Shown here: positions 13,298 through 57,800 of the stretch, piece by piece
Numbering within the stretch: position 1 is the stretch's first letter
How the letters are laid out: each line of letters starts with the position of its first letter
Origin: Amoebophrya sp. A120
Lineage: Eukaryota > Protista > Dinoflagellata
Direction: 5' to 3'
NCBI GenBank assembly: GCA_905178155.1
Contig: CAJINV010000025.1
Location: forward strand, 1 to 64,000
Length of the DNA: 64,000 nucleotides
The notes under the pieces: generated by a model
Told to the model about the DNA's origin: nothing
Seen by the model: only the letters and a program-made list of their open reading frames with translations
The model's database searches: none
Position numbers and translations under genes: made by a program

Positions 13298-13765
13298 TTC
13301 CCCCGACGGCACTACCTCGATTTCGGGAGAGGATTCCACAGAGGATTCCGGAGAGGATTCCAAAATCCTCTCCGGAATCCTCTGGCCCAATTTGAGCCGT
13401 CTTTCGCGCCCTTTCCCCGATGCTACGGCCCCGATTTCGGGAGAGGATTCCACAGAGGATTCCGGAGAGGATTCCAAAATCCTCTCCGGAATCCTCTGGC
13501 CCAAGTTGAGCCGTATTTCGCGCCCTTTCCCCGACGGCACGGCCTCGATTTCGGGGGAGGATTCCACAGAGGATTCCGGAGAGGATTCCAAAATCCTCCC
13601 CGGAATCCTCTGGCCCAATTTGGGCCGTCTTCCGCGCCCTTCCCCCGATGGCACGACCTCGGTTTCGGGGGAGGATTCCACAGAGGGTTCCTCAGAGGAT
13701 TCCAAAAGCCCCTCCGGAATCCTCTGGCCCAAGTTGAGCCGTCTTTCGCGCCCGCTCCCCGACGG
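13298..13765. repeat. 4 x 114-bp tandem repeat, each unit with a ~21-bp hairpin
   Basis: The motif tttcggg(a/g)gaggattcc recurs at ~13321, 13435, 13549 and 13663. Stem-loop cagaggattccggagaggatt-ccaa-aatcctctccggaatcctctg is perfect in the first two units. Confidence 0.92.
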
Positions 13766-25400: not shown

Positions 25401-27087
25401 CCTGTACTACTACCTTCACGCACCAGTTCTGGTACGTGGCCGCGCTCACGATCATCCCCAGCTCCTTCATCTTGTCAATCTGGACAAGAACCTTCCCGCC
25501 TGCGATCTGTCTCTCGATCTCCGTTGCTTCTGCGGTCAGGGGATGCTTGTCCCGCTCAGTTTCGAGTCCTGCGCGCTGTAGCCTGAAACCGCGCACCCGC
25601 TTGTTCGCCATTCGCTGAAGCCGCCGCACCTGCGCGTGCATGTGGCGGACGGATTCATCTCCTGGTGGTAGGGGGTCGGTCAGCTGGCATGACCACAGCT
25701 GCATTTTCTCGGACTGGTGGGGCAGCTCTGCTAGTGTCTTGATCTTCTTTGCGGCTGTCACGGCGGATCTTGTGTAGTAGCGCATTCGCGGCGCTGCTAC
25801 GCGCTGCATCTGGATGGCGTCCGAGACGAAGCGGCGTACTTCTGGGTGGCTGGCTTTTACTATTTCCCCCCGCAGGCGCAGCAGCTCCTTGCGTTCCCAC
25901 TCGTATCGCCACGTTACCAACATCCGGGAGCTGCTTGGCAACTTCCGCATGTGGAGCAGGTAGTCGACCTTCCGCCTCGCTCTTTGTCGAGCAGGCCCGA
26001 CGACTACGTTGCCCCCATCGACAATGCTACGCAGCTTGTATTCTGCAAACTCGAAGGGGTGGCCTCTCCGCGCGAGCAACATCTGCAGCGGGCACGCTTT
26101 GGTGCGTTTCTGGCCTAGGTACTTCGCCAGAATGTGCAAGTTGCGGCGGTCGTATATGTTTACCGGCCCCGTGGTCTTTGCCTGGGCTTGGGCTAGCATA
26201 TCGCTGTAGGTTTTCCCCCGGTCGCCGATTTGTTCGTTTTTCCGTGGTCGGACTGCTAGTAGTGTGGACGTTGGAATACTGATGTGGGAGAGCTCGCGTT
26301 GCCACTGCGGTGGCCGGCCCCGTCGCTTCTGCCGTTTCTTTCTCGTTTCGCCGTGCTCAAGCTCGCCGTAAAGGTGCTGGTCGTCGTCCTCCAGCGAGCC
26401 AAACAATGCGCCCGCACTGTTTAGCTCCGGTCGCAACATCCGGATCAAAACCAGCTCGGCGCGCCGAGCTTCGCCGACCAATCCGCAAACCCGGATCGCC
26501 ATAAATCGGACTATACCGTCCGAGTACTTCTTCTTTGGGCTGTTTTGCAGAAGGGCAAGGCGGTGCTGGTTGTAGCGCTCGAAAATGTTGAGCGTCGACC
26601 CGATATACAACTCCCCCTTCCTGTTCCAATATGCGTAAACCAGGCCGGGGCGCTGGTCTTCGCTACACCGGGCCGAGTGCTTGCCGCGCCTTTTTCATGC
26701 TGCGTTCTGCTTCGAGATTGCTATTGCTCGGCGCTGCAACGTGTCAACTTCCGGTATGTCTGCGGGGTCAAGGAGCTTCGTGTACTTGCGAAGCTGCTTG
26801 TCTAGTCGTCGTAGTCGTCGCCTCAACCTCTCGTCGCTTGCGTCTTGATATTCCCGGACTGCTTCAATGTAGTTCTGTTGTAGTTCTTCGTAGTTGCGTC
26901 GTGTTGTTTCTATTGCGGCTTCGAGTAGATCCCCTACTCGTGGCTGTTTCTTCTTCTTGCTGTTGCTGTGCTCCATTTTGCACTTGTTGCTCGTCGTCGT
27001 TGTTTGCTGTTCCTCTCGTTTTTCTCGTTTCTATACCGACCCGCCGTCCGTTCGTCTCGAAACAAACGCGGAAAAGAGCCGGGCTAT
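22500..27087 (-). mobile_element. Penelope-like retroelement with permuted (N-terminal) GIY-YIG endonuclease, Naiad/Chlamys-type architecture; 3' boundary uncertain
   Basis: Single long intron-free ORF with endonuclease and reverse transcriptase motifs and an A-rich 5' UTR. A 50-bp exact direct repeat (21578-21627 = 27088-27137) brackets the region. Confidence 0.8.
22915..26976 (-). CDS. Penelope-like polyprotein: N-terminal coiled coil, in-frame TGA (26695-26697), GIY-YIG endonuclease, reverse transcriptase, long C-terminal extension
   Basis: GIY-YIG: GLVYAYWNRKGELYIGSTLNIFERYNQH...E...PELN. Penelope-type RT motifs: VQIDK, YIYVLPKGK...FRKIVS, IIDAVVFFERI, GTPIGGICS, RFVDD. The 93-aa ORF 26695-26976 is in the same frame as the 1231-aa ORF. 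Confidence 0.85.
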
Positions 27088-37200: not shown

Positions 37201-40200
37201 CTCGTCCCCCGTCTCCACCCAGGGCCAAGGAGTCCCGCAAGTGCCGCAGCTTCATCGAAGCGGAAGCAGCAGCAGCTCCTTGTCGCGGAGCAGCTCGAAA
37301 ATCTCCTCTGTTGCGAGCAAAGAGCAGAGAAGTGGAGGTGGTTCTCGTAGTACTATGTTGAACAGCAGCATTCCTGTCGCCGAGCAACAGAGGATCGTCA
37401 CAGCGCCGCGCATCAGCAGTCGCGAGGTCGTGACCGGCGGTGGCACAACGGCCGTTGCAACGACGTCAAGCTCTCCATCTACTTCCGCTGTGGAGCCTAG
37501 TCTACTCGCGAGCAGCTCGACCAAACCCCGCCCCGCGCGCAAGGTGCAAGGAGTGGGAGCTGGTGCGCCGAGTCCGAGCGGAACTGCAGCTCCTGCATCG
37601 AGTAGCAGTGTCGTGTCTTCTTCCACCTCCTCTGTGCTACGCGAGTCTACCACTGCGACTGGCTCAGGACAACTACAACTACGCGAAGACCGGCTCATCT
37701 CGCACCAGGAACAGCGGGCAAGTATGCACTGCAAATTTTTTGTCCTCTGGGTCTGCAAGGATACAACTCTGTCATGCGTGTGTACTCAAATGACTGTTAA
37801 GTCTGTGTATTGCATTGTGCTTAGTCCAACTTCTATTCACAGATCATGAGTTGTGTCACAACTCTCCAGGCCCAGATCGATATTTGCAGTTGATAGCGAG
37901 CAGGAACATGCAATCTAGCCCGGTCGATCCGCTGTCGCGCCCCATTCAGATCAACGACGAGTTCTACAGAGAAGTAAAAAACTCGACGTCCTCGATATAA
38001 TCCGCTCAGGTGTTACAATCTCAAATCGGTTGCAATGGAATATGGAAATCTGTGATGCAAGAGTGCATGATCTAGCCAACTCTCATAGGGTTGCGCATGA
38101 CAAGTTCCGGAGCCCCGAACCCCACTACGAACTGGAGATATTTGCATTGCAGAAAGTGGAATGGTCTGCGAGTCTGTCATGCTCATGATGCAACACAAAT
38201 TCCAACCTCTATGGTAACCGGTTTGAGACTGTGACGTTTGAGCACGTCATACTCGAAAAGCACCGACCGCGAGGCGGAGGGGAACAGCTGTTCCGTCGAG
38301 GTCGTGCAGATATCAATTGCAAAACTGTCTGGGTCTGGAAGATTCTGAGACTTGTCATGCACCTTTTGCATGAGCCATGATGTCTGTGATGCATGCCGTA
38401 GCGTCACAGATCTTTTGCGGAGTTCTTGATGCCTATTCCGCATGACAAATGGTCTCTCCGCGTATTTCCACCTTGCTCGCGGGCTTGGATGGTAAGGGGG
38501 TTCTGCCACACATAGCGCCCACTGGCCGTACATGCGCGTAAGAAATCGATAGCGGTTCTGCGGTTGCGGTCGGGTGATAGTTAGGAAGTGGATCGGGTAT
38601 CCACCTAGGGGTATTGGCAGAGGCTAAATCTGTTCTAACGCCCAGGTATTGGCAGAGGCTAAATCTGTTCTAACGCCAACCCGCCAGGAGTCAAATGGTC
38701 ACTACTACTACTGCTACGCGTAGCAAAAATCACACCTCCTTTGCTGCTCATGCAATGCAAATTTTTTTGGAATCCGAATGCAGCATCACAAGTTCCATCC
38801 TCCCAGACCCAGACACTTTTGCATTTGATAGCAGATGGTGAGCAGCAACAGCACATCGCCCGTTGGGGACAATGACGGGGGGTGCTTTGCTGCGCTTCCG
38901 TTCCCGAACGGCAGTAAATCGCTCACCGCAGTGACGGCGGACAACTTTGTCAACGATTTGCTGATGGACGGCGTCCAGCAGGCGGGGAAGCAAGTCCGGG
39001 GAGGTATCAAAGTGAAAGATCCCCCCTCCCCATATTGAAACGAAAACTTCTGTTGCTGGATTTGTGTACACAATGTCTTGCAATGAAGCACCACAGGCAA
39101 AGCCTCAGCCTGCGTAGGGGTGTTTTGTTGTAGGCGCTTAGTATAACAGAGGCCTGCCATGTAGGTAAAACAGCATTACAAATCGCCACCACAAGGCGGC
39201 GGATTCTTTGGATTTGCCTTCTGGCAAGACAGACGTGATTTGTGGTCTGAAATCAGCAACACAAATTTGCGGAAACATACCTTTTCGATATGGGGAGGGG
39301 GGATTTTTCCTTTCAATCGGAGGAGCAGCGTCCTTAACGGCGACAAACTCGTCACACGAAGAAAATCTTGCCAAGCTGTCCTACAGGAGCAGTGCTGTCG
39401 TGTCCGTCGTGGAAGTTCTCGGAGTGGAAGGAAGTCCGTCTTCCGTACCTCGGGACATCAGTAGGGCATCGGTTGACCACGACCACGCTTACAACCCGGA
39501 AGAAGATGGTGGCAACAACTTCCGCACCAGCACGATGTCTTTCCGACCCAGCACGAGGCAGCCGAGGTCAACTATCCCACGAAAAAAGTGTTACAGTTAC
39601 ACATTTGTAGTCGACTCCGCAACACAAATTTCTCTGCGTGAGTGAGAAAACTTGTAATTACACAAATAGAACACACTTCAATTCCAAAATAAATCTCCTT
39701 TCTTCCTTTTTTCCTTGTTTCCTTTTTCTTTCCATTCGCACGCAATAATTATCGCTACGGGCCTTGAGCGCTAGCCTAAACCGGCCGCAATTCACTTTTT
39801 GTAATGCAGAAATCCTACGGGAAAACACCGATGAAACGAGGCTTGTATGCATATCCGGCATGACAGAGCTTGTCTGTCTTGCTTGGCCTACAACACAATG
39901 TGTAACTGTAACACTTTTTTCTTGCGATATCAACGGAAGAGCTGCTCGGGAAGCCGGACTACGTCGTGGAAGATGATGCGGGTCATCTGCCGGGTACTGG
40001 TTATAATCCACTGGACCCACGAGCGACGACGATGATCGTACGTGATAGTACAACAGCAGCAGGAGACCACAACCACGGTGGTGATGAGGAGGGCACCAGC
40101 CGAGGAGAAGGAGAACTACTACCTGTGTCGCAGGAAATAAAACTACTCGGCGGGGCAGCACGAGGCGAGAAAGCCGCGTCTTCTAGCCCGATCTTCGACA

Positions 40201-43200
40201 GCGCTGTGGAGGTTTTGCCGCAGGATGGAGAAGAGGGTGTTTCGGTTTCCACCGGGCGAGAACAGCGAGGGGAAAAAAGCAACAGCGACGAAGCATTAGA
40301 CCAAACAGGCCGCGCGAACGCGAAGTCTTCAAAAGCCACTAACTCGCCCAGTGCAGATGTTGAAGGAGTAGAGCAAGTGGCGTCCTCTAGCAAGCAGACA
40401 CTAAGCAAAGAAAGTGCTAACAGTCAAGACAGCGCGACCGCAACGACGCCAGTGGACCCGCGCGAGCTGAAGCTGGAAATCAACCGGTTGAAATTCAAAC
40501 TGAAAGACTCGGTTCGGGTTCGCGACCAATGGAAGAAACAACACACTACCACGCAGCTGAAAATGCGGCAAATGGAGTCCGAGTTGACGGAGCTAAAGCG
40601 CGCGACGTTGACCTCCACCGCGGACCTCCTCCGCGGGACGAGTAATATGGCGGTGGACGATGGCGCACTACCAGGAAACGGTTCTGCGTCCAGTTCCTCC
40701 CAACCTAGCCGGCAGCGCGCGCAAACCGCAGGCGTGGAAAGCACTTCGGGGCTGTTGATGTCTTCTGGGGGTGGAGGTGGCATGGACAACACGAACGACA
40801 GCCAGAACAATTCGGTCTTGTCGGAACAGATCGAGCAGTGGAAAAAGGAAAAGGAGGAACTCGAGAAGGAAAATCTGAAAAAGGAGCAGGCCTTAAAGCA
40901 AGCCATGGAAAAGCTGCAATTGGTTCAGCAGGAAAAGGAAAATCTCGAAAAAACGATGAACGACGTAACGAACGGTGGGAACAACACAACAACTGTGCCA
41001 ACTATGCAAGGAAAAAACTACGTGAGTGTAAGTCTGTGATGCAGAAAATGCAAAACTGTATACACTTGTCATGCCAGACAACCATGAAGTTCCCTTTTCG
41101 TTATGTGTGTTTTGTTCCCTTACAAGCCACGCATGGCAGGTTTTCTCAGTGATGTAGAGCAAATTTGTAATGCTGGCAGCGAAAAGAAAGCTGCTGCTAC
41201 ACTAACACAGGTTTTTTCTTGGATACCAACATCGTCAACGTCCTTGACTTCTCCCACGGACCTGCGTAACCAGCTGATCGCGCAGACCTTCTCGCAGTCA
41301 CAGGCAAGTCAGGGAACAATAAATCTAAGCGGTGCCGCAGCACCTGCTGGCCAAGAACAGGAGGGAACGACAGACGCGCAAACTGCTGCTGGCCTCGGGA
41401 AAGGTGGAATATCAGCCGCCGGTGCAGGAGCACCGCCGCAAACTAAAGGCGCACCAGCTCCTGCACCACCGTCTACTACGAAGGGACCGTCGCTCGGGAA
41501 AGGCGGGCCGCAGAGCGTGCCCGCGCCGCCGCCGGCGATGAAAGGAACCGGCGCGCCGCTCCCCGTGGTGCCGAAGGCGATGCCGATTAAGGGCAAGGGC
41601 AAGGGGAAAGCACAGGAAACGAAAACGAATGGATTGGTGAACATCCACTGGAGACCCGCGAAGGAGCTACCGACCAGCGGTGCTGCTGATCCAAACAAGT
41701 TTTTGGAGTCGTTTCTCAAGTACAATCAAACGCTCGACGTGGAGTGCGACGGCGTTCCCGTGAAACTCGAATTCCTCGACTGCGATGTCGGTACTAATGC
41801 CGGTGCTGGCATCGGCGTCAACGGCGAGGTGCACCCGCGAAGAAGGACCATCTACAGTCTGGAAGTGCCCGGAGCTAGTAGTGCTGCGGCGGCCCGTATC
41901 ACAGGAAAAAAACTGTGTAAGTGTAACTGTGTACGAAGAGCAGCATCACAGATTCGTTTTGCATTACAGGGAAAACCTGTCTTGCGTAGCTAGTAGGTGA
42001 AAACACGTGTGAAAGTGGCCTATGACGCACATCCAGCATGACAATCGTATATAGTTTTCCATTTGCTGCATCACAGATTTACACTCGCATAACTTTTTTC
42101 TTGGATAGTCCCGACTTCGTCCTCCGCTGCCAATGACGAGGACGAGGAGGACGACGATGATGATGAGGACACGAGTTGTAACCCGCCGAGTTCTTGTGTG
42201 TCGAAAATGAAACCGCGGTCTGAATCTGCGGACCCGAGAGGCGGAGGGAACAATTCTTCCTCCTTATCAGAAGGAAAAATCCCCCCTCCCCATATCGAGA
42301 CGAAGTTTCTGATGCTGGATTTGTTTACACAAATCATATTTGTCTTGCTGGCAAGGACTGCAGGCCCATATCAAGCCTGAGTAGACTGGTTTTGGCCTAG
42401 GCGCTTTGCATGATAGACGTCTACTCTGTAAGTCAAACAGCACGACAGACCGCCTGTAGAATGCGGCGGAGCATGTGGAGTTGCCTTCATGCAACACAAA
42501 GACGATTTGTGGTCACAAATCAGCGAGCACAAATTTTCGAAAACGTGCCTTGTCAATATGGGAAGGGGGGATTTTTCCTTTTGATACTCCTCCTCCTCCT
42601 CTGCAAAAGCGTTGCCGGATGACATCCTCACCGAGTATTTTCAGAAGAAGCGCGCGACAGTGGATCTTACCACGATGACGAAGATTCACGCGACTAATTT
42701 CGCGAGCCCCAAGAAAATTCCGGGCACTGGACATATCAAGGGTGGACACCACGCGAACGGCAGTAACAACGGAGGTGGTGTCCACGGCTTCAACGGGGGC
42801 CAGAAGCAAACCGTGCTGCTATTGAAAGGAAAAATCCCCCCTCCCCATATCAAAAGGAAGTTTCTGATGCTGGATTTGCGTATACAAATCAGTTTTGTCT
42901 ATCTTGCAGTAGAGGACTGCAGGCTCCTGCCAAGCCTGAGTAGAGAGCTTTTGGCCTAGGCGCTTAGCATGAGAAACGACTATGCTGTAGGTCCAACACC
43001 ATCACAAACCGCCTGCATAATGCGGCAGAGCCTGTGGAGTTGTCTTCTTGCAAGACAGACGTGATTTGTGGTCTCAAATCAGCAAGGTCGACATGGCGAT
43101 TGTTTGGGGAGGTTCCTAACGGTCCCCTCAGGGCATTGCCTCGTCGCTGACCTGTGGAGAAAGGCGGTTCAGGTCAGCTTCGGGAAGGGTATCCGGAGTT

Positions 43201-45588
43201 GAGTTAGCTTCGGCTTTCTCTTGTGTATTCGAGGGCAGTGGTTGGCGGAGGTTGTTGGGATGTTCCTAAACGGTCATCCCAGAACATTTGTGTTCCTTTC
43301 TGACTTCCTCATTTCCTGTGCAGTATTTTACTGCATATACAGGCGCCACCCTCGTTTATCACCTCCAGGGCTACGTGCGACCCCTCCGACGCTGCGTGTG
43401 GAAGGAGGAAGTTCGGCGTGTTGGGGGTGAGGGACCCCCAACGAGGCCTACGGATATCAAGGGGAACTAAGGCTCAAATCAGCAAGGCAAATTTTCGGAA
43501 ACATGCCTTTTCGATATGGGGAGGGAGAATTTTTCCTCTCAATAGCTGCTCGATGAGAAGCGGATCCGCATGCTGGAAATTCTTCTGCAAAGACAGAAGA
43601 TGACGACCGGTTTGTCGGGGAAAGACAGCATCCGCGCGATCAAAAACGCCTTCCTCTCCTGCGACTACGATTTGGTCCCTCTGGACTCGCTGGTCATAGT
43701 CCGCAACGTGCACATTGTATCACAAGAAAAAAGCGTTACAGTTACACATTTGTTGGAGTTTCTGCATCACAAATTTTTTCCGTGTGGCAGACAAAACTTG
43801 TAATGCAAAGATTATAAGGGAAAAAGAAAATACGTAGGAAACGAGGCTCGCAAGCTTTTCCTGCATGACAAAGGTTGTCTGTCTTGCGGCTCCTGCAACA
43901 CAATGTGGAACTGTAACACTTTTTTCTTGCGATACATCGTCCACGTGGAGCTGGGCGAGCCGGTGCGAAAATTCGTGGAGCAGAATATGGCCTGCTCAAA
44001 CGTTACAATGATCTCAAACGTGACAATAGAATCTGGAATTTGTATTGCATGAAAAGCATGAGGAACGCAGAGAGAATTGAGCTTTTCGCAATACAAATTT
44101 TGCCAGATTTCAGGTGGGTTTGGGACTCCGAAACTTGTCAAATGATGCGCAATCCTATGTATTAGAGTAGGCTAGATCATGCAGTTCTTGCATTACAGAT
44201 TTAAAGACTCTGTTGTAACAGTTGAGATTGTAACGTCTGAGCGGGTCATACAGAACAGTTTGGGGTGTTCCGCCAGCTCCGAGCAGGAATGCATCGACCA
44301 GGAGTTGCTGCAGCTAGACCACTATGGAATGCAAATATGTCTGGGTCTGGAAAGTCGGAACTTGTAATGCTACCTTTCCATTGCTAGGAAATCTGTATTG
44401 CATATACCAACAAAAGTCGCAGCCTCTTTTGTCATGCAAAAACGCAGTTTCTCATACGGAGTTCCTATCAGAAACAGCTCTGGAAAGTTGTCATGCTCGG
44501 CTGCATTCGGAACCGTTTCCATCATCCATATCTTCGCATCACAAGTCTCCAGACATCCAGGGATATTTGCGTTTGATAACCACCCGTTCTGCCACCTGCT
44601 CGTGTGGGAGGTGTGTTGTAAGGTGCCCGCGCTGGAACAGCGGCTCGAGTAAGACCTGCTCAAACGTTACAATCTCAAACGTTACTTACAATAGAATATG
44701 GAAATCTGTGATGCAAGAGGTGCATGATCTACCCTACTCCCACAGGGGTAAACGCATGACAAGTTCTGGAGTCCCAAACCGCACTACAATCTGGTGAAAT
44801 GTGTATTGCAGAAAGTGGAATGCTGTGCGAGTCTGTCATGCTCATCATGCAACACAAAACCCAAATAGTACAGACTCTATTGTACTGACGTTTGAGATTG
44901 TAAGGTTTGAGCAGGTCATATCGAGTGCATGATGTTTGCGTCGAATTTCGAGCAATTTTACGACAACGCCATGCAGTATGATAATGCACAACTGCCCCTC
45001 CCCCTCATTTGTCATGCAAAACACCAAATCCACCCTTTTCTCTTTTGCACTTCTTGCAAGACAGGTTTCAAAAGCCGAAACAGCACTAGAAATAATATCG
45101 GTCGCGAATTTGTCATGCAAAAGCTGCATTCATGCCAGCACTTGTGTTGCTGCATTCATATGCCCTTCAAATGAGGGGGAGGGGGAGATGTGCACTCTCA
45201 TATGCGACGGCTAAACATCGCCTACAACGGGCTCCTGACCATCTACCGAAAGCGCATGTTCTGCGCGCTGTTTTTCCAGACCGCGAAACGGCTGGGGATA
45301 TCAAATGCAAAAATGTCTGGGTCTGGAAGAATGCAAGTTTGTCATGCTTGTCTGGCATGACTCCAGAAGCTGTGTTGCATAGGCAGGAAAAAGCCCTCTT
45401 ACCTGTCATGCAAAAACGCAGTTTACCATGCGGAATACGTAAGACCACATGGCAGCCAAAAAATTTGTCATGCATAGCTGCTTATTGCAGTGCGTTTATC
45501 ATTCACTTTATAGCATTACAAGTTTCCAGTCCCAGACATATTTGCAATCCATAGGGGAACCAGCTGAACAAAGGGTCCAACGTTTCGA
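34289..45588 (+). CDS. Formin (FH1-FH2), segment 1: long S/T/Q-rich N-terminus, coiled coil, proline-rich FH1, first half of FH2
   Basis: 20 introners were removed with one DR each and the frame is continuous. FH1-like APAPAPPS...PAPPPAMKG. FH2 motifs GLVNIHWRP, LTEYF, LLDEKRIRMLEILL, KVPALEQRLECMMF, LGNQLNKGS. Confidence 0.88.
34607..34890. mobile_element. Family B introner (TIR tatcctgagtaaaaacgtcccca...tggggacgtttttactcaggata), ~280-360 bp
   Basis: DR tgtgg/tgtgg. Other copies: 16303-16665, 32208-32501 (tcggg), 35197-35479 (accgg), ~49515-49798, 58975-59356, 60428-60706 (aagga); half copy at 2739-2838. Confidence 0.9.
38465..38716. mobile_element. Insertion nested in a family-A introner
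   Basis: Unrelated ~250 bp flanked by cgcgta/cgcgta, with an internal 33-bp duplication (ggtattggcagaggctaaatctgttctaacgcc) and an (act)n tail. Confidence 0.65.
39573..39929. mobile_element. Family F introner (TIR tatcncaagaaaaaagtgttacagttacaca...tgtaactgtaacactttttttcttgcgata)
   Basis: DR tcaac/tcaac. Copy at 43718-43934. Related variants at 41003-41225 (ccaac), 41897-42107 and 51811-52024 (gcatc). Confidence 0.87.
43088..43472. mobile_element. 385-bp insertion with 15-bp target-site duplication nested in a family-D introner
   Basis: ctcaaatcagcaagg occurs at 43073-43087 and again at 43473-43487. A TSD of this length is typical of target-primed retrotransposition. Confidence 0.75.
44977..45202. 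mobile_element. Family J introner (TIR tatganaatgcaca..cccctccccctcatttg...caaatgagggggagggggagatgtgcactctcata)
   Basis: DR tgcag/tgcga. Removal joins FYDNAMQ-RLNIAYNG in frame. Degenerate relative near 28943. Confidence 0.8.
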
Positions 45589-45854
45589 TATCAAATGTAA
45601 AAATGTCTGGGTCTGGAAGGTTGCAACTTGTGATGCTGTCTTTGGAAGGTAAAAAAAATCTGTATTGCATGACCAGCAAGAGGAGTTCAGTTTGTGCTAC
45701 GCGGAGTGGGCGTTATTTCTTATGCGGAATACGCATCAGAAGGCCCTTGAAAAATCTGTGATGCTACGTCATGCATCACAGACATCATGGGTCATGGAAA
45801 ATATGCATGACAAGCCTGGCAATCTTCCAGACCCCGACATTTTTGCACTTGATA

Positions 45855-48800
45855 TAGTTCCGCTTTGCTCAAATCTCGGTGAGACCGACCGCGCCGGCGG
45901 GGGGCCGAGTGGGCCTCGACTGGAACTGGATTTTTTCATCATCGCATGATCAGATTGCGAATTATGCTGCTGCTGGTTAGTCATTTCCCCGGAACCACGA
46001 GCAGGTGGTTGCAGGTGCTGCTGCTGCTGCTGTCCACCCTCTTCCACAAAAGTTCTCGGTGTCACCGCCCTCTGCGGCGGCCCCGAGAAAACGCCCGAGG
46101 GCATGGCCTTCGTTCTCGCGCTGGAGGATAGGAGTTGCCCCTTCAGCGACTCCTCTTCCTTCGACAGGCGCATCGGCGCTAAATTGCCCTTCGAATTTTT
46201 CCTGCGGTTGGTTGCGACAGAGACGATCTCTTCGACGGGAGAATTCCGCGCGGTATTCGGGCGGCTGGAGGAGGAGGAAGTGGATGGTACTAAGGCAGCA
46301 CCGGCATAAGCCGCATTGTTGCTCGTCCCTGATGAAGCAGCTTTGGTGCTCGCGCCGGATGAAGTGGCAGCACCTCCTTCTGTTGTGCTTCCAGAGGCGG
46401 CGCCGCCTCTACTAGAAATACTTCCGCTCGTCATAATTCCGCCCCCGCGCGTCATTGTGACAAAATTGTTCGTCCGCGGGGTCGTGGTCCGGCTGCTGCT
46501 ACTCGTCTTGCCAGGACGCTGTGAAAACCTTTCGACCACCTCCTCATTCTCCGTATTGCAGCTTTCCCGCTCGCTATCCCGCTCGCTGTGCGAGTTGTTG
46601 TAGTTGTTTTCGTCCTGGTCTTATGCACTGCAAAAGTAATATCGTACTCTGGTTGTACTAATTGCAGGTATGCTTGATAAATGTGCTTCCACCAAAGGTA
46701 AACTAGCAATAGAATGAGAAAGAGAATCTCCATTTCTCATGCTGAGAATTATAAAACTTGTATTCTGCAATTTGTACGTACCCAGTACGGTCCTTTTGCG
46801 ATGCATAGGTCTTCATTGACACTGCTTCGCTTTTTCCACGGCGGCTCGTGCGCGTCGGCCGAGGAGGTGCGGAGGCGGGAGGTAGGCTTGATTGTCTTAC
46901 CACCGTTATTTGTAGTCGACTTCGCTGTCGACGATGTACAACCTGAATTGGCAGCTCCTCCTGCTGCTGCTGCCCCCGACCGATTAGAGCCGCGGTCTTT
47001 CTGAGGATCCGGCTCCTCGCCATTCGACGAAAGCGTCGGAGAAACCTTGTAGCGGTAATCCTGCGACGACCGACTCGGTGGGTGGTAGGACGAGCTGCTG
47101 GGGTACTGCGAGCCCTGCTGCTGTTCGGTCGTGTTGAAGATGTTGAGTAAGTACTTAAGCTGCTCAAGCATGACACAGGGTTTTTCATATGTGCGATGCT
47201 GCATGACAACCTTATAGTTTTTATCAAAAATTCTAGTAAAAAAATACCACATTCCGTCGGCCCGTTCCCCCGCCACCTCCCACATTCGTGTCGCTCGCTC
47301 TGGCAGTGGTCTGCTCTTCCGCACTTTCACTGCTGCTTCTCCGGCGCACCTGCCTCGCGCGTTGCCGCGATTCCTGGCGGGACCGAACGGAGACCGAGCG
47401 GAGGGACGACTTGTGTAGGGCGGTTATGCATTGCAAAAGCATTGTACTAGTATAAATTGCATCACAAATTTTGGCAAGAAGAAAAGTGGCATTTGTAATG
47501 CTGTTTTACATTAGGATTAGACTTGTCATGCATATTTGCAATTAGTACGAGTACGATACTTTTGCACAGGATAGCGGTCGCATAGACTTTATTTCCTTTC
47601 TCCCCGTTTATTTCCACCTCTTCCTCCGTGCTGCTGCGGCCCGGGGGGATGGAATTGGTCGAGTATGACCTGCTCAAACGTTACAATCTCAAACGTTACA
47701 ATAGAGTCTGGGTTTTGTATTGCATGACGAGCATGACAGACTCGGACAGCATTCCACTTTCTGCAATACAAATTTCGCCAGACTGCAGTGCGGATTGGGA
47801 CTCCAGAACTTGTCATGCGCAATCCTATGAGAGTTGGCTAGATAATGCACTTCTTGCAACACAAGTTCCAGATTCTATTGTAACGTCTGAGATTGTAACG
47901 GCTGAGCAGGTTATATCGACGACTTGCTTTTTGGGGGAACCATGGTGGACGCCGCCGCAGCTACGCCAGTGGCACTAGTTCCGGTTGGCGGGGACGAAGC
48001 CGATTTCTCGAGGAACAGCTTCCCAGCACCGGAAGTTGAAGAAGATGCCCCCGGTTGCTGAGCAGACGCACCGTTATTGGAAATGACGGAGCTTCGCTGG
48101 CTGTCCCTCCGGTTGCTCGAGTCATACACGACGATTTGTCCATTGTTACCCGCCGTTGATGTTCCTGCAGTCCCAGCAGCAGCTCCACCACCATTCATCT
48201 CCGAGTTCACGCTCGCCCGTTATGCATTGCAAAAGCACCGTACTAGTATGAATTGCATTACAAATTTCCTCAGCATGAGAAATGCAATTTGTAATGCTGA
48301 TTGACCTTAGGAAAAAGATTTGTATATGCATAACTGCAATTACTACGAGTACGATACTTTTGCACAGGATACCCGTCGATCCAACACGAAATCTGGCCCG
48401 TCGGACAAAAACGAATCCTCAAGCGGGTTGTTGCTGTCCAGATCGTCGTTGTTGTTTCCTATGCTGTTCCGCCTCCTGGTGGCCAAGGCGTTTGCGCTCA
48501 GCTCCAGCCGACTCACGATTTTTTCCCGGAGCGGGCGAAGCCCCGGGCCCTCCAAATCCCGGAACGCCTTGCTGCAGTGGTTGGAAAAGTCGAACATGAT
48601 CTGAAACAGATCCTTGCTCCCGCTCGCCTCACTCGGGGGCGGCCACAAACTTCCCACATCGTCGAAGAAGATACCCAGCTCCTTGTAGGTCTGGAACACA
48701 TTGCAGGCGTACACCGCAATTTGGCTGGCCCGGTCGCGCGCGTTCTCGACGAAAGTGCCCATAACCTAATTTTTCTTTTTGTGGGGAAGATCTTTTTTAT

Positions 48801-49944
48801 CAGTAGACTATGCTTCCACGACGCATGAGAAATGTTGACTCAGTAGAAAGCCGCGCATGACAAATAAAGAGCAGCAACATTTTGTACGTCTTGGAACTGG
48901 TCGTTTTGGTCGTATTCCGTGGGCATCATGGTCAGCCGCCGCTTGTTATCAAATGTAAAAAATGTCTGGGTCTGGGAGGATGGAACTTGTGATGCTGCCT
49001 TTGGATTCTACATAAAATCTGTATTGCATGAGTAGCAAAAGGAGAAGTATAGTTTTTGCTTCGTTTTCATTTCATTGAGACGGGCCCCCAGTGGTCGTCC
49101 TCACGGTGTCATCCTGGCCCTAGGCTGTTTTGGACAGATGTTGGTTGTGCCCAGCAAGATGACGGCTCCGCCCGGGCAAATGTTGGTAATGTGATACAAG
49201 GATAGGGCATTTGTCATCCGGAATAAGCATCAAGGTGCCCTCAAAAGATCTGTGATGCTAGGGCGTGCATCACAGACATCATGGCTCATGCAAGACATGC
49301 GTCACAAGTCTCAGAATCTTCCCGACCCACACACTTTTGCATTTGATACTTGTCCACCTGCACAGAAATCCCAGTTTCCCGGTTTTTGTACTCGCCCGTT
49401 TCCACGACTTTCTCAATTTCCGCGAGCGACTCCACCAACGTCGAGCACTGGTCGTACACCCCAAACGCGCGGACGGTTTTCGCCAAGTCTAACCTTCGCA
49501 TGTCGGCCTGTGAGAATCCTCAGTAAAAACGTTTCCACCCCATAGTTGTCATGTAGATTTGCATCTACAGAAACATTTGTGATGCGGGTCCCCATGAGAG
49601 GCATTTTTTCTAGTCGTGTTTTGGAATTTGCAATGCTGAAAACAGAGTCAGCAGATGGATATGTGAGCCACGGCTGTCCTTACGGCCCTGCACTACACTA
49701 CGGACTGCAACTTGTCATGCGTGGCTCCCAAAGCTTCTAGATTTGTGTTGCTAAGTTCCCACCCTGACTATGGGGTGGGGACGTTTTTACACAGGATAGG
49801 GAAAACATTTGGTTCTCCTCCGTGATGTTCATCAGGCAGAGGATAAAATGGTACAACGTCGCCCGCGGCTCCGCCGACGATTTCGTTTGCGCGAGCTTCT
49901 CCAAGGCCGACAACTCGAACCCGGTTTGGTCCTCGATGGTCGAA
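45855..49944 (-). CDS. Formin segment 2 (inverted): second half of FH2 and low-complexity tail
   Basis: Minus-strand exons read TIEDQTGFELSALEKLAQTKSSAEPRATLYHFILCL, DMRRLDLAKTVR, DQFQD|VMGTFVENA and YKELGIFFDD...DLFQIMFDFSNHCSKAFRDLE. Contains six introners and one GT-AG intron (48766-48887). Confidence 0.9.
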
Positions 49945-50206
49945 TATCAAATGTAAAAGTGTCTGGGTCTGGAAGAATGCAAGATTTGTGATGCAGGTTT
50001 TCCATGACCCAGGAGGTCTGGAATGCGAGACCCAGCATGACAGATTTTTTGAGGTCTCTATGATGCCTTTCCTGCATGAGAAACTCCCTCTCAACTTGGT
50101 CAAAAGCGGACAGCTTTTGGTACTCACGCAACACAGATTTGTGCATCATTCGGATTTAGCATGACAAGTTCTAATCTTCCAGACCCAGACATTTTTGCAT
50201 TTGATA

Positions 50207-52936
50207 AACTACAGCGGGAGGTTCTTCGGGGAATTACAACCCGAGCGAAAATCTCCGGGCACCGCCGTCGTCGACTCCGAGCCAGCAGCCGCAGGACCTG
50301 CCGCCTAGAGCTAGTTATGCATTGCAAAAGTATCGTACTAGGCTGAATTGCATCACAAATAATTCTGCCAAGAGCAAAAAATGGAGTTTGTCATGCTGGA
50401 AAAGGTAAGGACCGATATCTGTCATGCATGAATGCAAATTAATACGAGTTCGATGCTTTTGCACTGCATACTAGTGCGCGGATGTCCGGTCGGACGGCAA
50501 CGGCGAGCAGTGTGGTTTCCACGACGAACTCGGCGCGGGGCAGTACCAAACCCAACCCGTTTATGGAGGCGTCAGGATCGAAATCAACAAAATCAAAATA
50601 AGTAATTTGTGATGCATAAACTCGATACCGCTTGGTGCTTCAGTTTCTAAGTGGCGCATGACAAGTTTCGGGAGCACCAAAATCTAGTCTGTCATGCCTT
50701 TTGGGCAAAGAAGACTGTTCCTGTCATGCTACACGGGCAGCACATCGCCTTCCCCTAAACAGGCTTGCGATTGGTCTCATTTGCCTGCTCCCTAATACAG
50801 ACTATGCGCGTTCTCCATTTCATGCATTACAAATTTTGCGACTTTGTCGATTTCGATCCTGACACCCCTATACCGTTTACCGGAGCCGCCGGGCGCGCCA
50901 GCTACGATCGGCAGAACAGTGGGGCGAGCAGTAGCAGTTCCGGGGGCAGAAGACCGCAGATGCAACAGATTACAAAGTACTCGATTATTTTTCGAAATTG
51001 CTGTGGTTCAGTAGTTTTTCTTTATACTTTTTGGGTCATCTTCTCGCTGTTTCTTTGTCTTCTACCTTCGTGCCTGTTTTATTTCATGGCTAGGTGCGAG
51101 TGCGACGAAGAGGTTTATTTACACAAATGTTTTCAACTACAGCATGCGCAGCATCAACCAGCCTTCCGGTGGCCGACGCGGGCAGCAGACTAGCTTCAAC
51201 CATTTTATGGGTCCCACGCACAGTTTATCAACTGTAGAAATGTCTGGGTCTGGAAGAATGCAAGATTTGTCATGCATATTTCTCATGACCCATGATGCCT
51301 GTAATGCATAACCTAGCATAGCAGATTTTTAGAGGGCTTCCTGATGCACTTTCTGCATGAGAAATGCCCTGTCCGTGTAGCACAATTTGTACCCCTCTTG
51401 CTGGTAATGCAATACAAATTTTTTTAGAGTCCAAAAACAGCATGACAAGATGCAATCTTCCAGACCCAGACACTTTTGCAGTTGATACAGTTCTACGAGC
51501 CGGGTGTCCTCGAAAAAGAGCCAAACCCGACAGTCGCTCGTATCCTGTGCAAAAGTATCGTACTCGTATTGCAATCATGCATTACAAATCCTTTTGTTAA
51601 AGGTAAATCCGCATTACAAATTTCATTTCTCATGCTGAGGAAATTTGTAATGCATTTTCATTTATACGAGTGCGATACTTTTGCATTGCATAGCTCGCCG
51701 GCTTCTGCGACGTTCAGGAGCAGGCCGTGCTGCAAGATCTCTTCGAGGCAGAAAACTTTCAGCTGAGCAGTGACGACGAGGAGGACGACGCGCGGCAAAA
51801 TTCGTGCATCTATCGCAAGCAAAAACTGTTTCTCTGTAAACTTGTCATGCAGAAAATGTATCTTGCATAGTGTCTGTCTTGCTACACATGCAAGAAAGTG
51901 GATTTTTTAGGTGTGTTTTGCCTTAGGAACATTGCATGGAAAATTTTCTCTGACGTGTAGAACAAGCTTGTGATGCTGCAAACCTTGCAAAACCCTTACA
52001 ATGAAACAGTTTTTTCTTGCGATAGCATCTCTGAGGTGAGTACTGCGACTTTGAAAGACGAGCTACTACGCGAGAAGAGAAGGCGGCTGAGCTCCGGCGG
52101 GAAAAGTTTGCAGCGCTTCTTGGGGGGCGCTGAAGAACAGCGAAATCACACTCACACGACGACGAATTCCTCGTCTAGGGGATACAACACACACGATCAG
52201 CTTCTATCCGGAGGTCGTGGAGCTGGTGCACCAGCTGTCACGGCCAGTACTGCCGCCATGAGCCGGAGTAAAGTCGGGGTGCCGAGCTACCACCACACGG
52301 GTACAAATGGTGCGAGCACGAGGACCCCCACTACAGCCGGAGTTCATCTGGAGCATCAAACTAGTACTGGCAATAGTACAATTACGTCTAATAAACCCGC
52401 GAACCTGCGACCGCTGACTAGTCGGCCCGCCGGCGGTGCTGGACATCCGGGCGGGTTGCCGCCAAGAGGGGGTGGAGCGATGGGAACGGGTGCGGCAAAT
52501 GGAATGATGCTAACCCACCACCAGCGCGGCGGGGGAACGCGGCCGCCCGCGAACCATCCGCACACGGTATTACAATGAAAAATCCCCCCACGCCAGAACC
52601 TCTTGGCAGCATTTGTATTGCAAACCCTTCCAAATGAAACATTCGCCCTCGTCTTGCATCTATCAGCATCACAGGTTTTCAGTCGCGAATAGCAAAAATT
52701 TGTATTGCAAAAGATCCCAGCAAGAGCGGCGCTTGTCATGCAAGCACTGCTATATACGCCTGGACTCTGCATCAGAAAGATTCATCATACTCCTTTCATG
52801 CATGACAAAAAGTTTTCATTTGCAAACTTTGCATCACAAATTATTGCAACTTTGGGGGTGGGGGCATTTTTCCTCGCGATACACGGTCGGCACGAGGCCG
52901 GGACGGGCACCACAAATGGCACCGGTCTACGAATGA
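50207..52936 (+). CDS. Formin segment 3: C-terminal low-complexity exons
   Basis: Continues ...FEQSGT|TAGGSSGNY... through six introners and a GT-AG intron (50977-51142) to ...APQMAPVYE*. Confidence 0.78.
52568..52881. mobile_element. Family I introner (tattacaatgaaaaatcccccca...gggggtgggggcatttttcctcgcgata)
   Basis: DR cacgg/cacgg; frame restored on removal. Confidence 0.8.
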
Positions 52937-53420: not shown

Positions 53421-54820
53421 TAAAGAGAGGATCAAAAGAGCAGCAGCACAAGAAGTTGACTTGCTCGAGTTGTTTTCTTTCAAGGACTGGCTTGGTCTAT
53501 GTCTATCCAAAGTCCTTCTAGTTGGCCTAGTTTAATACAGTTGAGTCGGCAGCACAAATCCTGTGCGCCAGCAAGCACGCACTCTCTTTTTACCAGTACT
53601 GATATTATGCAAAATAAAGTGCGGAGAGAGGATGGAGGTCTTTCCGCACAGCCACATTTACAAATTGTTTTTTCGAGCTAACCTTTTGAAAATGCCAATA
53701 ATTTTCACGAGATCAGAATTTATTCGACAGTTACAGCAAAAGACTTCCAAAGAGTAGTAGTTTGATTCGAGCATATGGTTAGAGGCAAAAGCCCTGCACA
53801 AAAAAGTAGCAGGCACGATAATTTCCAATTTCAACAAGTAAAATACTGAATAAGCGCAAAGTTGCTATAAGCAGAAGAAGGTACTTTTTATTCATCTCGA
53901 CGGAAGTTTATAAGAACACCACAGTGCAGTCCTTGTCGCTGCTGCGATCGCAGAGCCAATGAGCTGCGCGAGACGGGAGACTGTAGTCAAAGCAGATTAG
54001 TAGTTTTCACGGCGGACTGGCAATAAACGATAAGTACGGAGAGCCAGTAGCCGAGATAGAAGAGAGCTTTCTATGTATAGGTAAATACGAACGGTTATCC
54101 AAGACCACGAGCTCGAATTGCAAAAGAAAAGCAGTCGCGTTTCCAGAGGCGCTGTCATACTATCTCGCCAAATAAGTAAACGACAAGTCAAGAAAAGTCC
54201 ATCGGGGAAAATGTTTTCGAATTTACAGTTCAAAAACCGCAAGAAGAGCTAGGGTTTCTTTTCAGATTCACAGATTTAAAAGACCGACGGGGTCACGCAG
54301 AACAGTGCGAATTTGTTTTCGAGCTAGATTTACTACAAAAATGAAATATTTTTCCACGACGAACAGCGAAAGCAAGGGCAAACGACGTGAAAAGCGGTGT
54401 GAGGGCAAGTTGTGATCTTTAGTACAAATGTAACATCATAAGTTTTGTGATTCACGGTCTGCGTGCAAGAAAAAGAATGTGTTCAACCTTATAGGACGAG
54501 TACGACAACATTAGAAGTACGATTATCCCGAGAACGAAGGTTGCCGTTGGTGCTGACGTGTGCAAAACGGCCGTGAAGAGAGCCTATGGAGCGTAAGTAT
54601 TCAAACTCGAAAAAGCGACTGTTACGGCATACTGCTTTTTTCGAGCGTGTCAAAATTTTCTGTCTTTTTTCCGATTTTACCCGCTCCGATAAAGCGCCCC
54701 AATCGCCGCTGTGCTATCGCACATTTTAGCCTGATCAGACGTCGTAGCTTGTGGTGGAAGTGGTTGCAGCAACTCCCGGCACTTCCCGTCGCAGCATGCA
54801 CAACGTCCTCGAGGACCATC

Positions 54821-57800
54821 ATGCTGGCCTACACGAGTGTGGAGAAGATCCTGACTCGGCTCGGGTACTCGCACACCCGTACCCGGGGGAGTCACCACCA
54901 ATTTACGCACCCGCACCGCGCGACGCAGCCCGTGCCGGTGCACAACCACAAGGTGCGGCCGGATGTGTTTCGCTTGATCCTGCGCAACATCGAGCGGGTG
55001 CGGGAGAGGGAAGAGCAGGAGACCGGCTTTGTTCATGATCCTGTACAACTAGTGGAGGAGGTTGATATTAAAAACGACGATGCTGAGGAGCTCCAGGTTG
55101 ACTTGTGCGAAGAAGTGGAGGTGGATGAATCAACTAGTACAAGAACTTCTGCTGCATCTAATATTGCGCCACACGAGGTGGACACCTCCTCTTCCTCCAG
55201 CGGTTCTGCTAGTGCGCATGCTGACCTTGTTCCAGTCACTACAACTTCCAGAAGTTCTTTTCCTGGCGATAAAGCGAAAGCTGGCGGGTCCACCGGAATT
55301 ACATCTTCCGACGAGGTAGCTTTGCAGAAGGGAACAAGAGTTGCTGCTTCGTCTACAAGAAGGAGCCTTCTGTTCAAGCCGAAGCCCCGACAACGGAGCA
55401 TCAAGCTCAACGTGCACACGATTGCCAGCATCGTCCTCGCGACCGAGGAAAAGGAGGAGTACGAACGCCTTTTGCAGGTGTGGGAAGCGAGGGCGAAAGC
55501 GAAGCAGGAAGGAGTTCGGCAGGAACTGCTGGACATTGAGGCGGAGTTTCACGAACTAATTTCGGATGGCAAGGCCAAAGAGGCTGCGGACATGCTGGAA
55601 AATGTGGTACGCGATAAGCGATTCGCAAAATATCGCGGACAGCAGCTGCAGGAGCAGAAGTCTTCGGGTAGTAGTTCTTGTCAACAACAGTCTACTTCAT
55701 CGGGTGGAGATGGTGTTGACCGCATGAAGATCCTCCAGCCGGAGGCCACTGTGACGATCTTTGACCTAGAACTGTACTACACAACCGCTTTGGAGCAGCA
55801 CGCCAGCTCCTTCCCCTTCGGCAGTGAGAAGGCGTTGGCGGTGTACCAGAAGTTGCTGAATTACCTGGAAAAAATGAAGACTGTCTGGTGGCGCCACAAG
55901 GAGACCAGTGTGGTGGAACTTCGACACAGCGAGTGCCTGAAGAGCGTGCTGTGCGGGTTATCGGCCGCCCTGTGCAAGCTGAGGGAGAAAAAACTTGCGG
56001 GCCTCGAGATGGTCCTGGCGCAGCGCATATCAAATGCAAAAATGTCTGGGTCTGGAAGAGTCATGCTGCTTTTGCATGACAAAGAAGGTCTGGCATGGAA
56101 ACTCTAGCATCACAGGCTTCGAGAAGCTTCCGCAATGCCGAATCTGCATCACAAATGCCCGACTTTGGTGACAGAAAGTAGACAGCTTTTGCTGCCTATG
56201 CATGAGAGATTCTTATGTGTTGTGAAATGCGCATCACAAGCTTGCATTCTTCCAGACCCAGATATATTTGCAATGCATAGCGCAATGTCACCAACTTTTT
56301 CATCTGGCTGGTCGGGTACTTTGACGAGCAAAAGCTCCGCGCCGAGCCGCGGCGCCGCCGGTTTGCGGAGCTGACCGAGATCTTCGGCCCCGAGCTGCTG
56401 GGGCTCGCCCGGCAACTCCTCTCGCCCGCGAGCCATTTCTTCCTCGAAGTCGCGGCTCCCTCGGGGATTCTACAGCGTTGCGAGAAGAAGTGGCTGCGAG
56501 AACTGCAAAAGGCGCCCAAGTATCAAATGCAAATATATGTTTTCTGGGTCTGGCAAGTTGTGATGCAAATCTGTCAATGGTGAGCGCAAGTGCGTTTTCA
56601 GGCAAGAGGCCCTTTTCTTGCTCATGCAACAGAGATTTAAGGGTCATGCCAGACAAGCATGACAAACTTGCAATCTTCAAGACGAAGACATGTTTGCAAT
56701 GCATACCAAGTCCGTCACGCTGCTGCTCGAAGTGTTCGAGCTGATCGTACCGAAAAACGCGAAAGAATGTCCAAAGGCCCGCAAAGCCTTCTGGAAGAGG
56801 ATCACCGACGAGATCAACAGTCGCGGCATGGGTCTGGGGCTCATGTGCGGCTGCGGGTGCAACTCCGGCGTGCGCGTGTCCCAGGAGCGAGAGCTCTTGA
56901 AGCCCAACCGCGCGGAAGCGGCTTACAACACCGAGCTCAAGATGCTGCTATCAACTGCAAATATGTCTGGGTCTGGAAGAGTCGGGGTTTGTCATGCACA
57001 TTTTGCATGACCCGTGAGGTCTGTGATGCAGATCCTAGCACCAGCAGAGATTTTTTGAGGGCTTCTTGATGCTTATCACGCATGAGAAATGGTCTCTCCG
57101 CGTGCCAAGAACTGAACTCCTCTTGCTGCTCATGCAACACAGATATTTTTAGATTCCGCAGACAGCATTACAAGTTTCACCCTTCCAGACCCAGACATAT
57201 TTGCACTGCATAGCTGCGCTGGCTGCGCGAATTCGTCGGCAGCTTTCACGACGTCCAAGCGAACGAAAAGATTGACGACATGACCCTCCTTCACGGCTGG
57301 GGCTCCACGTGCGGCCTTGGCGCCGAGGTGGTCTATGAAATGCAAAAGCATCGTACTAGTATAAATTGTATTACAAATTCGCTCAGCATTACAAATAAGA
57401 TTTGTAATGCTGTTTTACCGTAGGAAAGAGATTTGTCATGCATAACAGCAATTACTACGAGTACGATACTTTTGCAGAGCATATGCTCTTGTCGCTCGTG
57501 ATGTTGAACCGCCTGCGCCCGAGTGTGCCGGCGCGCCTCCTCGCGAATCACCTGGCGCTGCTGCGGAAGTTCAACCTGGCTAGATTACACCCCGCCTGGG
57601 TACTGGGGTGTGACTTTTGGGCGTGTTCGAACCATTTCGAGTGGTCTGCCTATTACCAGCTCGCCGCCGGCCTCATGACTTTTCTTTACGAGCTGATCGG
57701 AACGAAATGTGGGCGACAACTGCTGCTGCAGAACAAAGCCCCGGAGATTTTTCGTTTTTTGGCAAGCACCAACAGAAGTTTTGGTGCGGGGAGCAAGAAT

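Follow-up and report, generated by a model that had tools for sequence, protein, structure and literature searches.

An exon block inverted between two introners of an Amoebophrya formin gene: a likely assembly error

Within a 64,000-nt window of the Amoebophrya sp. A120 assembly (the whole stretch of DNA analysed, which is without any N), a formin gene is split over both strands, part of its exons lying in a 4090-bp block that is inverted between two introners of family A. We consider an assembly error the likely explanation, and think it less likely that the inversion is real or that it acts as a reversible switch; to the reading that the block was misjoined at the ~31-nt terminal repeats shared by the two introners we assign a probability of about 0.5. 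The living formin gene is likely in normal order, and a normal-order mRNA very probably exists, as judged from the block part of one RNA-type contig and from sequencing depth.

Results

The inverted block (45855–49944, minus strand) is bounded by the introners E1 (45589–45854, minus strand, 266 nt, alpha-type body) and E2 (49945–50206, plus strand, 262 nt, beta-type body), whose bodies lie in opposite orientations. The two flanks of each element agree at 1/5 positions, whereas the left flanks of E1 and E2 are exact reverse complements of each other, as are the right flanks. The first direct repeat has its outer copy, TTCGA, at 45584–45588 on the plus strand and its inner copy, TTCGA on the minus strand (TCGAA on plus), at 49940–49944. 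The second has its inner copy, AACTA on the minus strand (TAGTT on plus), at 45855–45859 and its outer copy, AACTA, at 50207–50211 on the plus strand. These positions confirm the four 5-mers reported in the initial annotation as well as its description of a ~4.1-kb inverted block between introners with swapped 5-nt flanks, which match only crosswise. The chance expectation for such a 10/10 crosswise match is about 0.0013 among the 1378 pairs of the 53 elements called in the window.

Nine exons, amounting to 2387 nt when spliced, make up the block and encode the second half of the FH2 domain and a low-complexity tail. On the minus strand they lie at 49799–49944, 49349–49509, 48886–48941, 48372–48763, 47916–48215, 47574–47658, 47248–47419, 46808–47120 and 45855–46616, seven being taken from the alignment of the RNA-type contig and two deduced from its coordinates and depth. 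The block further contains two canonical GT-AG introns (47121–47247 and 48766–48887, minus strand) and six ordinary introners (46622–46807, 47425–47573, 47664–47915, 48221–48371, 48947–49348 and about 49515–49798). Both canonical introns are missing from the RNA-type contig, and each of the six introners is absent from it together with one repeat copy.

Upstream of the block, 11 exons were modelled on the plus strand (39930–45588), comprising a proline-rich FH1-like stretch (41226–41891, plus strand) and, by profile, the first half of FH2 (43545–45588, plus strand). Eight exons were modelled downstream (50212–52936, plus strand), with the stop codon at 52934. Turning the block back in silico yielded 28 exons with 2046 stop-free codons from 39930, in a model with three exon borders set by hand and its start codon not located; the gene likely begins upstream of 39930. 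The lack of any stop or frameshift over this length indicates a formin gene without decay, and bears out the earlier claim that the segments stay open. In the assembled orientation, the formin frame stops 9 to 59 codons past the first junction, mid-FH2.

Against a profile built from 57 related FH2 domains, seven plus-strand exons aligned at positions 1–161 (three scoring below 3 bits) and four minus-strand exons at positions 163–363 (one below 1 bit), the profile order 1–363 being preserved across both strands. Pfam PF02181 matched a single formin exon with an E-value of 2e-4, under its gathering score, while the relatives P0001–P0003 score above that threshold. The independent protein P0001 contains both FH2 halves in one run, with 57% identity over 104 aa spanning the junction, and P0002 aligns across the junction to the turned-back formin with 46% identity over about 375 aa. 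The single open frame, the profile order and P0001 together uphold the proposal that one formin protein is split over both strands. The organism's own full-length formin was absent among the 8 candidates and the 81 matches of our protein searches.

The order of the transcript was assessed from record 9 of run X3 (6292 nt, depth 27.1), which carries the block exons at record positions 1287–3673, a span equal to the 2387 nt of the nine exons. As this record is devoid of the two minus-strand GT-AG introns, it represents cDNA with the block in the coding sense; this loss shows X3, the one of the four RNA-type runs X3–X6 that was aligned, to be cDNA, the RNA type of these runs being otherwise a tentative assignment. 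The block part ends exactly at both 5-nt repeats and includes both inner 5-mers, which normal order explains; were the assembled orientation read through, on whichever strand, no single cut register would give this result. An origin of record 9 from plus-strand read-through was rejected on the failing register and the missing minus-strand introns, and one from minus-strand read-through with one repeat removed on the register. Minus-strand read-through with E1 and E2 cut flush and both flanks kept could in principle give rise to record 9; such flush cutting would differ from the removal of the six inner introners. E1 and E2 sequence is not present in the block part of record 9, and both elements would be removed from normal-order RNA.

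Record 9 probably runs on into the plus-strand exons in normal order, its strand-change joints lying among 388 that the alignment listing leaves out. Its flanks measure 1286 and 2619 nt, which would suit the opposite assignment too, the upstream exons as far as 39930 amounting to 2633 nt. Two bins over the downstream exon 50471–50556 have implied depths of 27.12 and 27.10, matching record 9, and in all four RNA-type runs (two samples, one study) a fraction of 0.38–0.39 of the words is present, where the full set of exons would give 0.369 and the block by itself 0.239. In the raw RNA runs X9 and X10, 196 and 2 reads were placed, all on element ends and none on exons. The likely normal-order mRNA argues against a fixed null allele.

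Analysis of the boundary elements confirmed the earlier view that they represent two coherent subfamilies, E1 being alpha-type and E2 beta-type, with intact bodies. E2 is 93–95% identical over its full length to the intact copies L042, L040, L018 and L059, and its seven closest intact relatives agree with it at 59/62 columns between positions 33 and 231, a comparison blind to a switch inside the first 32 or last 31 nt. A crossover within the element bodies is ruled out by these 59 columns siding with E2; the non-chimeric bodies of E1 and E2 thus place the exchange inside the ~31-nt terminal inverted repeats, as had been proposed. As to whether the exchange fell in the inner or in the outer repeat, there is one informative column, at the outer end, on which the relatives split 4 versus 3. 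An artefact at inner positions 1–19 is excluded, as a DNA contig of run X1 agrees with the window to position 31.

The terminal repeats of E1 and E2 are alike at 30/31 nt for the outer pair and 28/32 for the inner pair, and their longest common exact stretches are 21, 14 and 12 nt. When pairing is considered over the first 31 nt, the crosswise ends show 3 mismatches in total and the assembled ends 5. This better pairing would suit a scenario of a fixed DNA inversion, with a minus-strand block transcript joined to its neighbours by two trans-splicing steps via terminal-repeat pairing. Exons of separate transcripts are joined at Drosophila mod(mdg4). Introner removal in these organisms has been proposed to rest on hairpin pairing, with U1 snRNA not detected (PMC7789003). 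However, the gene would have to contain an antisense promoter and both joins would have to be efficient, contigs carry no strand, and any of the readings predicts that the crosswise ends pair better, so that we regard this scenario as very unlikely.

On the DNA level, contigs of run X1 end at terminal-repeat positions 31, 26 and 24 (45824, 49970 and 50183), which probably marks these as ambiguous points of a short-word graph. During assembly, the block is likely to have been turned around and connected to the adjoining sequence via the near-identical terminal repeats, and such a misjoin would leave the same trace as a true crossover, with intact bodies and exchanged target-site repeats. Against a misjoin, no DNA contig in run X1 spans E1 or E2, so that normal order is not shown in DNA. 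The RNA-type and the DNA-type runs differ in both sample and study of origin, and inverted DNA and normal-order RNA could therefore both be right. In a pipeline published for genomes with introners of this type, long reads served to check the scaffolds, which were cut wherever the two disagreed (PMC7789003); if the window stems from such a pipeline, an artefact should have been cut. The exact shared stretches of 21, 14 and 12 nt are short to mislead current assemblers, and the window holds no N, which speaks against a misjoin.

The difference between DNA and RNA samples would also accommodate a real, recent one-off inversion by terminal-repeat crossover, yielding a formin null allele that is not visible in the RNA samples. 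The opposite orientation of the two copies and their exchanged target-site duplications, both found at the locus, are the signature of ectopic recombination, and whenever two such elements cross over, crosswise repeats are the textbook outcome (PMC3355041, PMC2775673). A Drosophila MITE has produced an inversion of this kind, one copy being cut down to 27 bp. Nevertheless, the event would break a conserved, expressed FH2 domain, would need to be present in the majority of sequenced cells, and would have relied on exact homology of only 12–21 nt, making it an unlikely reading overall. The earlier proposal of a recent inversion mediated by the terminal repeats is contradicted, as a fixed null allele, by the spliced contig, which is likely in normal order, and may still hold as a culture-specific inversion.

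To place E1 and E2 among other introners, we compared direct repeats across the window. Among the 16 complete family-A elements called, they agree at 5/5 positions in 11, at 4/5 in 1 and at 3/5 in 2, and the only two 1/5 cases are E1 and E2. Direct repeats at 4/5 or 5/5 were found in 43/53 called elements, and besides E1/E2 no other clear swapped pair occurs among these 53. The scan itself paired E1 with a neighbour's left end and so missed the E1/E2 pair. Its six calls at ≤2/5 comprise E1, E2, two non-elements, a decayed intergenic copy (12368–12678) and an element near 39006 for which inner ends were picked and whose direct repeat is perfect, and its two 8/10 crosswise matches stem from non-elements or from elements with their own 4/5 repeats. 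In another assembly, 65 loci supplied 52 complete copies, none with a clear swapped flank; L054, with flanks at 0/5, looks like a 2-nt offset. The swapped-flank scan that had been suggested genome-wide thus covers the window and 52 copies elsewhere, where E1/E2 are the only clear pair. None of the best 30 matches of the 65 element loci to the window covers the unique flanks of E1 or E2, and a search of metagenome contigs with P0001 did not recover the formin locus (463 pattern matches, 0 confirmed).

These counts weigh on programmed, pointer-guided DNA unscrambling as in Oxytricha. Formally the locus is alike, with a short repeat occurring twice and one copy retained per joint (PMC9797194), yet every introner examined here shares this property. 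What look like 'pointers' are ordinary introner flanks, and scrambling does not recur in the small part of the genome sampled, with one swapped pair among 53 window elements and no clear case in the 52 copies from elsewhere. Record 9, moreover, is cDNA rather than rearranged DNA. We know of no germline/soma split in this group. The suggested Oxytricha-like pointer system is therefore poorly supported, given 5-nt direct repeats at most window elements, and we consider it extremely improbable.

The same survey bears on repeated, reversible flipping at the terminal repeats, with both orientations coexisting in a culture or alternating between life stages and full-length formin made from the normal one only. 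Such flipping would explain, with no need for an error, why the assembly is inverted and the mRNA in normal order, and a reciprocal, base-exact exchange without loss is reversible. In a tree of 64 element bodies, the repeat tips at one end were without signal (0/5 columns with p≤0.01, compared with 3/5 at the other end), a decoupling that fits flipping and also hints at tip exchange or conversion, as in a one-off inversion; for both, the test is weak, since the tree derives from bodies, covers 10 columns and draws most copies from one other assembly, which possibly shuffles tips itself. Against flipping, the terminal-repeat core is common to every family-A copy and end examined, so that nothing marks out E1/E2, the 52 complete copies from the other assembly show no clear swapped flank, and a Pfam scan of 17 window ORF or exon queries revealed no recombinase or transposase family. 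Run X3 further lacks depth in the two canonical block introns that plus-strand read-through of an inverted allele would keep, which is weak evidence, as contigs drop rare forms. We thus hold flipping to be quite unlikely. That the inversion is real and full-length formin is nonetheless made, by block flipping or by hairpin-guided opposite-strand splicing, is a tentative and unlikely possibility.

Discussion

If the block is a misjoin, it exemplifies an error class to be expected in introner-rich genomes, for which crosswise direct repeats are a simple detector. A real inversion that arose once would represent a further form of a known mechanism and illustrate a cost of tens of thousands of ends with a common core. 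Should the DNA be inverted and the mRNA in order, the locus would be the first introner-bounded invertible or trans-spliced exon block found in the literature searched, and a natural test of hairpin pairing versus U1 splicing, a question left open in PMC7789003. The word 'inversion' is absent from the main text of that paper and from PMC12130899. If flipping or opposite-strand splicing were true, intron-forming transposons would act as intragenic recombination or trans-splicing sites.

As in FH2 formins (Pfam PF02181), a proline-rich stretch is followed by a full FH2 domain, which here is distributed over eleven short exons, on two strands as assembled. Assembly inversion misjoins at inverted repeats are reciprocal, loss-free flips bounded by short-word contig breaks, with a transcript in normal order. 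Unlike in the usual cases, the exact shared stretch at the formin locus is shorter, at only 12–21 nt. Invertible switches of the Hin/fim type have dedicated locus-specific sites, both orientations in one population and a cognate recombinase, whereas the core shared by E1 and E2 is found at all family-A ends and is not locus-specific.

Introners of Amoebophrya have been described as elements of about 150–350 nt with terminal inverted repeats of 8–20 nt or more (TAT, seven variable bases and an A run) and 3–5-nt direct repeats at the exon borders, which leave the RNA together with one direct-repeat copy (PMC7789003). E1 and E2 carry these terminal repeats (TAT, 7 nt, A-run); unlike the introners described there, their flanks, at 1/5 as assembled, match crosswise around an inverted exon block. 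The locus resembles the inversions Galileo 2z3 (PMC2775673) and BuT5 2s (PMC3355041), where same-family copies are opposed and target-site repeats exchanged and reverse-complemented. In those cases, both arrangements are physically documented and lie between genes, whereas at E1/E2 a single gene holds both breakpoints, each in an intron, and the DNA arrangement is that of the assembly; moreover, the Galileo copies are chimeric in their bodies (PMC2775673), while the E1 and E2 bodies are intact, with the exchange within ~31 nt. With the MDS/IES genes of Oxytricha (PMC9797194), the locus shares an inverted segment and short repeats that would be kept once per joint. Scrambled genes of ciliates have distinct scrambled and unscrambled DNA versions, template RNAs that direct the joining, and many such loci per genome. 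Unlike in ciliate scrambled genes, introners leave at the RNA level, alongside canonical introns.

Exchanged flanks at the formin exon block

In the assembly, the inverted block of formin exons (45855–49944, minus strand) is bounded by two introners, E1 (45589–45854) and E2 (49945–50206), belonging to the same ~260-nt element family (family A), which is frequent in the window, and possessing ~31-nt terminal inverted repeats. The anatomy of the window elements, with a TAT, seven variable bases and an A-run, short direct repeats and removal from RNA, agrees with that of the Amoebophrya introner elements (PMC7789003). Checking the window sequence confirmed the positions at which the initial annotation had placed the four 5-mers. 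For the 16 complete family-A copies called in the window with a strict anchor, the 5-nt direct repeat was perfect in 11, matched at 4/5 in one and at 3/5 in two, and E1 and E2 were the only copies with a 1/5 match. Each flank of E1 is the reverse complement of a flank of E2, a crosswise match for which ~0.0013 occurrences are expected by chance (1378 pairs of 53 called elements). This swapped-flank arrangement is a real pattern within the assembly; the 5-nt repeats themselves, initially described as 'pointers', are ordinary repeats.

A motif scan yielded 65 element loci, with contig names all of one other sequence set, including 52 complete family-A copies, for which the direct repeats matched at 5/5 in 41, 4/5 in 9, 3/5 in one and 0/5 in one. 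The 0/5 copy (L054, 283–543) reaches a 4/5 match when the usual register is offset by 2 nt, and so probably reflects such an offset. Three introners of the window (38311–38830, 42820–43544 and 48947–49348) contain unrelated inserts of ~140–400 nt with perfect direct repeats, the one at 48947 being absent from the RNA contig.

The bodies of E1 and E2 are of different subfamilies and lie in opposite orientation, sharing exact stretches in the inverted register of 21 nt in the outer repeats and of 14 nt and 12 nt in the inner repeats, on the block side. Four intact copies match E2 over its whole length at 93–95% identity. The seven closest relatives of E2, picked by E2 likeness, agree with E2 over E1 at 59 of 62 informative columns (positions 33–231). 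The best relatives of E1 show 80–84% identity only, yet cover its full length. Together, this agreement and this coverage place the exchange inside the first 32 or last 31 nt, corroborating with these non-mixed bodies the earlier proposal of two distinct subfamilies exchanged within their terminal inverted repeats.

The formin reading frame

Turning back the 4090-bp block by script resulted in a gene model of 11 upstream, nine block and eight downstream exons, reading through 2046 stop-free codons from 39930 to the stop at 52934, in line with the open segments noted initially. In the assembled orientation, the frame ends 9 to 59 codons past the junction. An FH2 (formin domain) profile built from 57 of 81 related proteins covered positions 1–161 with the plus-strand exons, in rising order, and 163–363 with the minus-strand exons, four short exons scoring <3 bits. 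Both halves are contiguous in P0001, a related formin from an unrelated metagenome contig (57% over 104 aa); a second relative, P0002, aligned with 46% over ~375 aa. The profile order and P0001 thus bear out that both strands encode one protein. One alignment spanned the junction in 75 of the 81 relatives, a count that is not unbiased, as these were retrieved by a junction-spanning query. The normal order is the ancestral arrangement, and the formin coding sequence is without decay.

Formin transcripts

Four runs, from eleven listed, were compared with window positions 44900–50900. Record 9, a contig of the RNA-type run X3 (6292 nt, depth 27.1), contained the block exons at record positions 1287–3673 with no extra letters, exactly the 2387 nt to which the nine block exons add up, seven of them matching directly and two placed in gaps. 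Two GT-AG introns, canonical on the minus strand only, are missing from it, which shows record 9 to be cDNA that reads the block in its coding sense. Its block part spans both inner 5-mers and ends there, whereas reading through the locus as assembled, along either strand, would need cut register 4–5 at one junction and 0–1 at the other. Since these cut registers differ, read-through under one rule fails to explain record 9, whereas the normal order does. For the downstream exon 50471–50556, two bins imply depths of 27.12 and 27.10, and one record extends past the end of the compared region in the following exon. Of the sampled words, the RNA-type runs X3–X6 contained 0.38–0.39; the expected fraction is 0.369 if all exons are present and 0.239 if only the block is. 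We infer from record span, registers, depth and word fractions that formin mRNA very probably exists in normal order, a certainty limited by the upstream bins, which are swamped by other copies. Record 9 would then start near 41505, within a proline-rich stretch, with its end at about 54433. Its 2619-nt flank nearly equals the 2633 nt to which the upstream exons add up back to 39930, which would also suit an antisense read-through from which E1 and E2 were excised flush. The raw RNA runs X9 and X10 gave zero exon reads on 44900–50900. An X3 contig match stops at 49895, inside the first block exon, and is followed by at least 255 unrelated letters, representing a chance match or a paralog.

Trans-splicing of the block, a process reported for mod(mdg4), appears quite improbable. 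It would be conceivable given the possible hairpin-based splicing and the undetected U1 (PMC7789003).

Other features of the window

An open frame at 54557–56107 (plus strand) belongs to a gene that an introner interrupts at 56028. It matches Pfam HicA_toxin, a bacterial toxin-antitoxin RNase family, above the gathering score (E 3.6e-10), making transfer from bacteria possible. The introner-free frame of 1259 codons at 22915–26694 (minus strand), opposite to most long frames, weakly resembles GIY-YIG at its N terminus (E 1.4e-4, slightly below gathering score) and is possibly a mobile element. Tandem repetition at 13352–13701 and 10260–10420 takes the form of short arrays that have internal inverted symmetry and of a ~23-nt tandem unit.

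Among family-A copies of the window and of loci L002–L065 from another assembly, one end has a terminal repeat whose first 10 nt vary without regard to the body. Identical multi-site variants also occur on distant bodies, on either end. Tip exchange, conversion or assembly shuffling are possible sources of this variation.

Origin of the inverted arrangement

Contigs of the DNA-type run X1, which stems from a separate sample and study from the RNA-type runs, were identical to the window over the eight longest pieces. At three of the four element ends they broke off within the terminal repeats (positions 31, 26 and 24). They support those exon-to-repeat borders, which are common to both arrangements. 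An artefact within inner positions 1–19 was ruled out by the same contigs. The contig end at 45824 falls on repeat position 31, where the core common to the four ends finishes, although this element end carries two rare variants that should have kept the path unique.

A reciprocal, loss-free exchange inside the terminal repeats, in the cell or the assembler alike, would yield intact bodies and swapped target-site repeats. According to PMC3355041 and PMC2775673, such swapped duplications are the mark of ectopic recombination between copies of a transposon. We favor an assembly misjoin, at a probability of roughly 0.5, because the gene lacks decay and is expressed, likely in the normal order, and because the flip begins and ends where short-word contigs break, although the exact overlaps are short and a published pipeline for genomes with this introner type (PMC7789003) included a long-read check. 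Truly inverted DNA from which full-length formin is still made would be striking and is doubtful. A one-off real inversion, by which a null allele must dominate the sequenced cells, is rather unlikely. A literature search, with most subscription papers outside its reach, returned nothing on inter-introner inversions or on this formin, and the word 'inversion' appears neither in PMC7789003 (main text) nor in the passages of PMC12130899 that were covered.

Recurrent flipping of the block is hinted at by repeat tips that, at one end, are uncorrelated with a tree of 64 bodies (0/5 columns at p ≤ 0.01; other end 3/5; body columns 98/105, a circular comparison) and that diverge beyond the bodies in eight close copies (0.13 versus 0.073). 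It is nevertheless unlikely, as the repeat core is present in all copies and the canonical block introns, which an inverted-allele transcript would retain, have no depth in X3.

Ciliate-type unscrambling (PMC9797194) is the least probable reading. It would call for a second version of the DNA, and the lack of recurrence speaks against it: E1 and E2 are the one swapped pair among the 53 called elements of the window, and the 52 complete copies of the other sequence set include no clear case.
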